From Escherichia coli (lineage in GTDB: Bacteria; Pseudomonadota; Gammaproteobacteria; Enterobacterales; Enterobacteriaceae): DNA of 64,000 nt. Below, piece by piece: positions 33,479 through 33,690 of the stretch. The position numbers and the translations under genes were made by a program. Position 1 is the first letter of the stretch. Each line of letters begins with the position of its first letter. The notes under the pieces are model-generated. The model was not told where the DNA came from. It ran no database searches and saw only the letters and a program-made list of their open reading frames with translations. Location: the NCBI RefSeq assembly GCF_003334355.1, contig NZ_QOWP01000005.1. One strand, written 5' to 3'.

Positions 33479-33526
33479 CTTTATCACTCCTGGGTGTGAA
33501 TTAACGTTTTAAAATCTTTTGCTGTC

Positions 33527-33590
33527 TGGTGTGCCGGATGTTTTGTCGGATGCGGCGTGAACGCCTTATCCGAACTACGTCCGACAAACA
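33527..33590. repeat. REP element in purC upstream/leader region
   Basis: GTCGGATGCGGCGTGAACGCCTTATCCGAACTACG read directly. Confidence 0.8.
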
Positions 33591-33631
33591 AATTTCGTGC
33601 GAATTACCGCTAAAATCGCGTTTTCCTGCCG

Positions 33632-33647
33632 ACGCACACGTTTGCGT
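33632..33647. promoter_or_regulatory. PurR box (ACGCACACGTTTGCGT) upstream of purC
   Basis: 16-bp near-palindrome matching the PurR operator consensus ACGCAAACGTTTGCGT; coordinates +/-1. Confidence 0.75.
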
Positions 33648-33659
33648 ATCATATCAGAA

Positions 33660-33690
33660 AAAAGGGCCGGATGATTCCAGCCCTGTATTT
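33660..33690 (-). terminator. rho-independent terminator after bamC
   Basis: On the minus strand a GC-rich hairpin (AGGGCTGG...CCGGCCCT) followed by TTTTTTCTG, directly after the bamC stop. Confidence 0.7.

Follow-up and report, generated by a model that had tools for sequence, protein, structure and literature searches.

The region between bamC and purC, in a 64,000-nucleotide stretch of Escherichia coli DNA (the window), raises the question of how purC transcription could be controlled by a PurR operator that lies 154 to 169 nt ahead of the first base of the purC start codon (A, 33478), with a REP element between the two. An earlier note on this DNA had placed a bamC terminator here, a PurR box at about 33632 to 33647 ("about 155 nt" ahead of the start codon), and a REP at about 33527 to 33590. 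It had called the layout atypical for a pur gene and offered two explanations, a long structured leader containing the REP, or a promoter lying downstream of the box, on which PurR would act from a distance. The features themselves were all recovered: the box exactly in that place, the terminator as a hairpin and T run found by scan, and the REP proper within a composite hairpin whose extent agrees with the note (Table 1).

The window carries dapA, bamC, purC, and ypfJ on the minus strand. In a search of E. coli genomes, a 361-nt query around the bamC-purC spacer matched O157:H7 genomes at 100% identity and K-12 at 99.7%, and in the RefSeq annotation of the identical DNA, as in that of K-12, bamC ends and purC begins here. 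The spacer is 212 bp long and differs from K-12 by one base, the window allele being of the O157:H7 type (G rather than T at 33630). Along the minus strand from 5' to 3', the bamC TAA is followed by the hairpin AGGGCTGGAATCATCCGGCCCT, a T run ending at 33658, CTGATATGAT, and the PurR box as ACGCAAACGTGTGCGT (33647 to 33632); about 150 nt including the REP then lead to the AGGAG and the purC ATG. This is very probably the standard E. coli purC control region, compressed against the end of bamC. With terminator, promoter, and operator packed within about 55 bp, it makes a tidy example locus.

Table 1. Features of the bamC-purC region, in window coordinates
Feature	Position	Strand	Basis or remark
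dapA, bamC, purC, ypfJ		-	ORF list; all on the minus strand
bamC	33691-34725	-	stop codon TAA 33693-33691
bamC (nlpB) intrinsic terminator, hairpin and U tract	33658-33684	-	terminator scan and Term-seq 3' ends
Extended -10, TGaTATGAT, -15 to -7	33648-33656	-	sequence reading; TATGAT at -12 to -7 (33653-33648), TG at -15/-14
PurR operator, -6 to +10 of the transcription start	33632-33647	.	15/16 match to the palindrome ACGCAAACGTTTGCGT
purC transcription start, +1 = A	33641	-	Kim 2012 mapping; 7 nt past the TATGAT hexamer
purC 5' untranslated leader, 163 nt	33479-33641	-	Kim 2012 start site
Escherichia-specific 101-nt insertion, counted with one flanking repeat copy	33517-33617	-	spacer comparison; repeat-to-repeat offset 101 nt
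Direct repeat copy 1, GATTTTAGCGGTAATTCGCAC	33597-33617	-	imperfect repeat
Composite hairpin: REP plus outer stem with partial REP head GCCGGATG (+ strand)	33528-33589	-	predicted -27.4 kcal/mol, folding of 33592-33525
REP, +64 to +96: GTAG and bulged hairpin TCGGAT-AA-GGCG / TTCA / CGCC-GC-ATCCGA	33546-33578	-	GTAG on the purC sense strand
Direct repeat copy 2, GATTTTAAAACGTTAATTCACAC, equal to the ancestral proximal leader	33494-33516	-	imperfect repeat
Shine-Dalgarno AGGAG, 8 nt ahead of ATG	33487-33491	-	sequence reading; GGAG kept in all aligned Enterobacteriaceae
purC coding sequence	32765-33478	-	ATG 33478-33476; ORF and RefSeq annotation

Central to the choice between the two explanations is the position of the purC transcription start. 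The transcription start table of Kim 2012 (PMC3415461, supplementary file 2) lists one purC start, at 2,595,803 on the minus strand of NC_000913.2, with 24 reads and a 5' untranslated region of 163 nt; no second purC start appears in that table. The sequence given there upstream of the start, AAAATACAGGGCTGGAATCATCCGGCCCTTTTTTCTGATATGATACGCAAA, which ends in CCCTTTTTTCTGATATGATACGCAAA, is identical to the window. Because the purC ATG at 2,595,640 in NC_000913.2 corresponds to 33478 in the window, the start converts to 33641. This position comes from one high-throughput data set, and a purC entry was absent from the SMRT-Cappable-seq, Romero 2014, and Shigella M90T supplements. The earlier note had proposed mapping the start and checking whether the REP is part of the mRNA, and had named as refuting its claim a start downstream of the REP, with the box overlapping a different, mapped promoter; the mapped start lies upstream of the REP, which is transcribed as part of the purC mRNA, so the structured leader stands.

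The sequence ahead of this start has the features of an extended -10 sigma-70 promoter. A TATAAT-like hexamer is preceded by TGn, the start falls 7 nt beyond it (6 to 8 nt being allowed), and in promoters of this kind a -35 element is dispensable, with the role of the TG assigned here from the sequence. No usable -35 is present: its position, read as AATCAT or GAATCA, falls within the descending arm of the bamC terminator hairpin and has 0 to 2 of the 6 consensus bases. A strict -35/-10 scan accordingly returned 0 promoter-like sites in 33300 to 33900, as a two-hexamer search is blank at a promoter that lacks a -35. The extended -10 element was identical in Citrobacter, Pseudocitrobacter, and RIT691 in the alignment, and 10 Escherichia alleles showed no variation in it.

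Just downstream of the -10 element, and overlapping the start site, is the PurR box. On the plus strand it reads ACGCACACGTTTGCGT, with one mismatch to the palindrome and with the central CG intact. A match this close (at most one mismatch) is expected by chance about 0.0015 times in 64 kb (49/4^16 x 128,000), and at a threshold of at most three mismatches there were 3 matches in the window against 0.72 expected, the purMN operator among them. Evidence from living cells is available as well. In the ChIP-chip data of Cho 2011 the exact 16-mer is the purC PurR site, at 2,595,794 to 2,595,809, which converts exactly to the window position of the box, and PurR occupancy at purC was higher with adenine (log2 ratio 2.08) than in its absence (1.52). 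Downstream of the bamC terminator, the 16-mer or its palindromic equivalent also recurs in about 25 enterobacterial loci or genera, adding conservation across related genera to the palindrome, the in vivo occupancy, and the start-site overlap.

In the proposed mechanism, PurR with hypoxanthine or guanine would occupy the purC start site and the discriminator, and initiation would be blocked. Where a pur-regulon operator overlaps the core promoter, occlusion is the generally accepted mode of repression, and from the position of this box we infer that PurR represses purC in the same way. The operator-promoter geometry at purC is thus standard for the pur regulon and is not a case of action at a distance. 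Of the atypical layout claimed in the earlier note, that part does not stand; what is unusual is the length of the leader, and a lineage-specific insertion explains it.

The insertion was recognized by collecting purC loci from 80 species and measuring spacer length and box position in each. In Enterobacter, Citrobacter, Pseudocitrobacter, Leclercia, Phytobacter, and several other Enterobacteriaceae, the spacer is 107 to 111 bp long and the 5' edge of the box lies 65 to 68 nt from the ATG, a short layout found in about 15 non-Escherichia genera. The corresponding values in E. coli and E. albertii are 211 to 212 bp and 168 to 169 nt. Escherichia shares with Citrobacter both ends of the leader, namely its first ~25 nt and its last ~38 nt (CGTTAATTCACACCCAGGAGTGATAAAGATG), as well as the box, the promoter region, and the terminator. 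The alignment shows one clean extra block of 101 nt in Escherichia, with a direct repeat on both flanks; the two copies are imperfect and about 21 to 23 nt long. The same sequence is single copy in Citrobacter and Pseudocitrobacter, from which an ancestral leader of about 62 nt follows. The PurR box looks far from the ATG because of this REP-bearing, Escherichia-specific insertion in the leader. For annotation, the implication is that a seemingly too-distant PurR box is no evidence of distant regulation, the distance being a lineage-specific repeat in the leader.

Under this scheme the ancestor of E. coli and E. albertii would have gained a 101-nt REP-bearing insertion in the middle of the leader, bracketed by a target duplication of ~21 nt, and thanks to the duplication the 38 native nucleotides next to the ATG would have been preserved. 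The REP thus landed in a 5' untranslated region with the conserved promoter-proximal and RBS-proximal segments undisturbed. A target duplication of ~21 to 23 nt is longer than would be expected from simple REP transposition. All 5,426 complete E. coli genomes covered at least 80% of a 271-nt query, 37% of which is insertion, so that the insertion is in all of them. An insertion-specific 47-mer was found in 5,395, and the other 31 of the 5,426 had no megablast (exact-word) match yet carried an insertion-sized spacer. No insertion-free E. coli allele was found: among the matches listed, a synthetic query without the insertion matched only as two pieces spanning 531 bp.

At the same point in the leader, unrelated extra sequences were present in Kluyvera (~63 nt), Enterobacter sp. 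BIGb0383 (~32 nt), and Siccibacter (~19 nt), in part palindromic. The sequences at this site suggest that it is permissive, either tolerating or attracting insertions. A 101-nt REP insertion with flanking duplication in the Escherichia purC leader, fixed in E. coli, may not have been spelled out before, although it would be a small and unsurprising addition.

The inserted element itself fits the definition of a REP as a 20- to 50-nt palindrome following the tetranucleotide GTAG, with two conserved stem mismatches forming a bulge (Corneloup 2021). Here the GTAG (33578 to 33575, minus strand) is followed by a stem of 6 plus 4 bp with a 2-by-2 bulge (AA/GC mismatch), ending at 33546. With the GTAG head, the bulged stem, a high copy number, and an extragenic position between bamC and purC, the element belongs to the E. 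coli group 2 type. Its 24-nt core (GGATGCGGCGTGAACGCCTTATCC, 33548 to 33571) has four other copies in the window at no more than one mismatch, where 0 are expected by chance. These lie at 4003 to 4026 and 4103 to 4126 (plus strand), 100 nt apart in the same orientation, and at 28845 to 28868 and 53940 to 53963 (minus strand). By megablast, the median number of places matched by the 361-nt query in an E. coli genome was likewise 6, the extra places being REP copies. The composite hairpin is not a BIME, which would need two REPs in inverse orientation with a linker between them; it has one complete REP and, as its second arm, an 8-nt head fragment. An Rfam scan of 32600 to 34000 (E of at most 1) gave only naRNA4 (RF02564), at 30.9 bits against a gathering threshold of 59.5, a match explained by the REP content of that family; a known RNA family in the purC leader was rejected, as this sole match was both below threshold and REP derived.

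Upstream of the promoter, the bamC terminator bears on how much transcription enters the purC region from the preceding genes. Its 9-bp stem (33684 to 33663) contains 6 GC pairs, begins 6 nt past the bamC stop codon, and is followed by 6 T's ending at 33658. Term-seq (Adams 2020, bioRxiv) places bamC 3' ends at 2,597,798 and 2,597,799 on the minus strand of U00096.3, which are 33658 and 33659 in the window, the last two U's of the tract. GC-rich hairpin, U tract, and RNA 3' ends within the tract are thus found together, as in an intrinsic terminator. The purC start is 17 nt beyond the bamC 3' end and the PurR box is 11 to 26 nt beyond the U tract. In the proposed sequence of events, most dapA-bamC transcripts would end at 33658/9, and 17 nt further on polymerase would start the purC mRNA at 33641 from the extended -10 without need of a -35. 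Termination is incomplete: 40% of transcription in M9, compared with 11% in rich medium, reads through the bamC terminator and yields a dapA-ypfJ transcript (Yan 2018). Kim 2012 lists two further starts, one for ypfJ (4 reads) that lies within purC, 288 nt ahead of ypfJ, and one for bamC (24 reads) within dapA, 368 nt ahead of bamC; they suggest internal promoters that may supplement the dapA-to-ypfJ read-through transcript.

This read-through leaves room for a second role of the PurR box, which we regard as a tentative possibility: besides occluding purCp, PurR bound there would act as a roadblock to polymerases reading through from bamC, and the dependence of read-through on medium would be at least partly a dependence on PurR. 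Read-through is the lower of the two in rich, purine-containing medium, where PurR is loaded (Yan 2018), PurR occupancy at purC is higher with adenine (Cho 2011), and PurR is a documented transcriptional roadblock at purB (He and Zalkin 1992, as cited in Cho 2011). The qPCR2 amplicon by which bamC read-through was measured (Yan 2018; 33689 to 33581, minus strand) spans the purC promoter and includes the PurR box, so PurR binding could confound or contribute to the difference between M9 and rich medium. Against this stands the explanation given by Yan 2018, in which the effect comes from an RNA "attenuator" that precedes the terminator; in support, its deletion raised read-through in rich medium. 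Roadblock and attenuator are compatible with each other and not exclusive. It is rather unlikely that the operator serves both routes, occlusion and roadblock, with read-through partly under purine and PurR control and with the REP hairpin perhaps defining the 3' end or the processing of blocked or read-through RNAs. If PurR bound past the terminator were a partial cause of medium-dependent bamC read-through, the published data (Yan 2018) would read differently.

Whether the REP has a function as RNA in the purC leader is a separate question. It might form a 3'-exonuclease barrier that stabilizes upstream read-through fragments, a determinant of processing or RNase E entry, or a partial Rho-dependent attenuator tuning purC, and we consider such a function unlikely. 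In its favor are the presence of the insertion in every complete E. coli genome and in E. albertii, and the roles in mRNA stabilization and transcription termination with which REPs and BIMEs are credited (Corneloup 2021, among others). Several E. coli lineages, and most E. coli alleles, also retain a hairpin predicted at -22 to -31 kcal/mol, kept through G-C to G-U changes. However, the hairpin region had 25 variable columns of 64 (12 of them from one deletion), against 0 variable sites in the extended -10 promoter segment, the PurR box, or the last 38 nt of the leader, in 10 Escherichia alleles that were picked from the divergent tail and whose variation figures are not population estimates. 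The stem is damaged in E. albertii (-17.6 kcal/mol) and in E. coli SCPM-O-B-8794 (-20.4 kcal/mol), compared to -27.4 kcal/mol in the window, and in E. coli AMSCJX03 the composite hairpin has lost its outer 3' arm to a 12-nt deletion (CAAAACATCCGG, equivalent to window 33545 to 33534) that spares the REP core.

Other genera have the same promoter, box, and Shine-Dalgarno sequence with no REP in the leader, and the unrelated sequences that Kluyvera, Enterobacter sp., and Siccibacter carry at that position point to a permissive site. There is no U run 3' of the REP hairpin on the mRNA strand, and the Adams 2020 Term-seq tables contain no 3' end within the purC leader. The hairpin is predicted to fold independently of the rest of the leader, the predicted unpaired probability of the Shine-Dalgarno sequence and AUG is 0.62 and 0.32 with the insertion versus 0.60 and 0.31 in a synthetic leader without it, and the stability of the leader is unremarkable (z = -1.39, with 23 of 200 shuffles folding as well). 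As to leader peptides, the sole minus-strand ATG open reading frame (33652 to 33575, 25 amino acids) begins upstream of the transcription start and has no Shine-Dalgarno sequence, and two TTG open reading frames cross the REP; none was kept as a candidate. We infer that the leader merely tolerates the REP as a passenger, whose influence on the processing or stability of the mRNA would be modest at most. Fixation and a foldable hairpin retained in most lineages would also fit weak selection for the REP.

The second explanation of the earlier note, a true purC promoter downstream of the REP near the ATG with PurR repressing from ~155 nt upstream by looping or only as a roadblock to read-through, is extremely improbable: although dapA-bamC read-through transcripts do cross the box (Yan 2018) and a weak CAGACA-17-GTTAAT can be read at about 33526 to 33498 on the minus strand, the putative -10 of that candidate lacks the essential A at position 2 (-11), was negative in the scan, and has no mapped start, the sole purC start of Kim 2012 is at -163, the box abuts a canonical extended -10 element, the box in other genera leaves no room between itself and the ATG for a second promoter, and PurR has a single operator here and therefore no partner site for looping.

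Control of purC by an operator placed over its own start site, with a leader lengthened by an insertion, can be set beside several known systems. GTAG-type REPs of E. coli (REPtron Ec; y, z1, and z2 classes) share with the purC element the GTAG head, a GC-rich stem of ~30 nt, the two-mismatch bulge, many copies, and an extragenic location. A 3' or intercistronic position is more usual for a REP than one in a 5' untranslated region. The purC REP differs from a typical REP or BIME in lying within a 5' untranslated region, in being single, with no REP/iREP pair, and in being bracketed by a ~21-nt target duplication.

The same window holds a second PurR box, TCGCAAACGTTTGCTT, at 57024 to 57039 (plus strand), 64 to 79 nt upstream of the purM GTG (57103) and with a -10-like hexamer, TAGAAT, just downstream of it; it is listed as the purMN operator by Cho 2011. 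Like the purC box, this is a ChIP-verified 16-bp PurR palindrome in the promoter region of a gene for de novo purine synthesis. The two differ in placement, the purMN box lying upstream of its -10, whereas the purC box lies just downstream of the -10 and over +1, and is 154 to 169 nt from the ATG because of the REP insertion. With its leader of ~62 nt, the ancestral purC layout was as compact as that of purMN. At purB (He and Zalkin 1992, as cited in Cho 2011), the operator lies within transcribed DNA, as the purC box does for dapA-bamC read-through transcripts; the purB operator is part of the coding sequence and a long way from its promoter on the downstream side, whereas the purC box also overlaps a promoter and its roadblock role is a putative one.

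Closest to hand is the purC control region of K-12. It was reportedly described, as a promoter with a PurR operator, by Tiedeman et al. and by He et al., both in 1990, and the former are said to have mapped the 5' end of purC and to have remarked on dyad symmetries in the leader, possibly including the REP. The architecture reported here is already known from K-12, with the operator from Cho 2011 and from older studies that it cites, the start and the 163-nt untranslated region from Kim 2012, and the terminator and its read-through from Yan 2018 and Adams 2020. Between that region and the window there is no difference of substance: the locus is the same, the operator sequence is identical, the coordinates convert exactly, and the context of the transcription start is identical.
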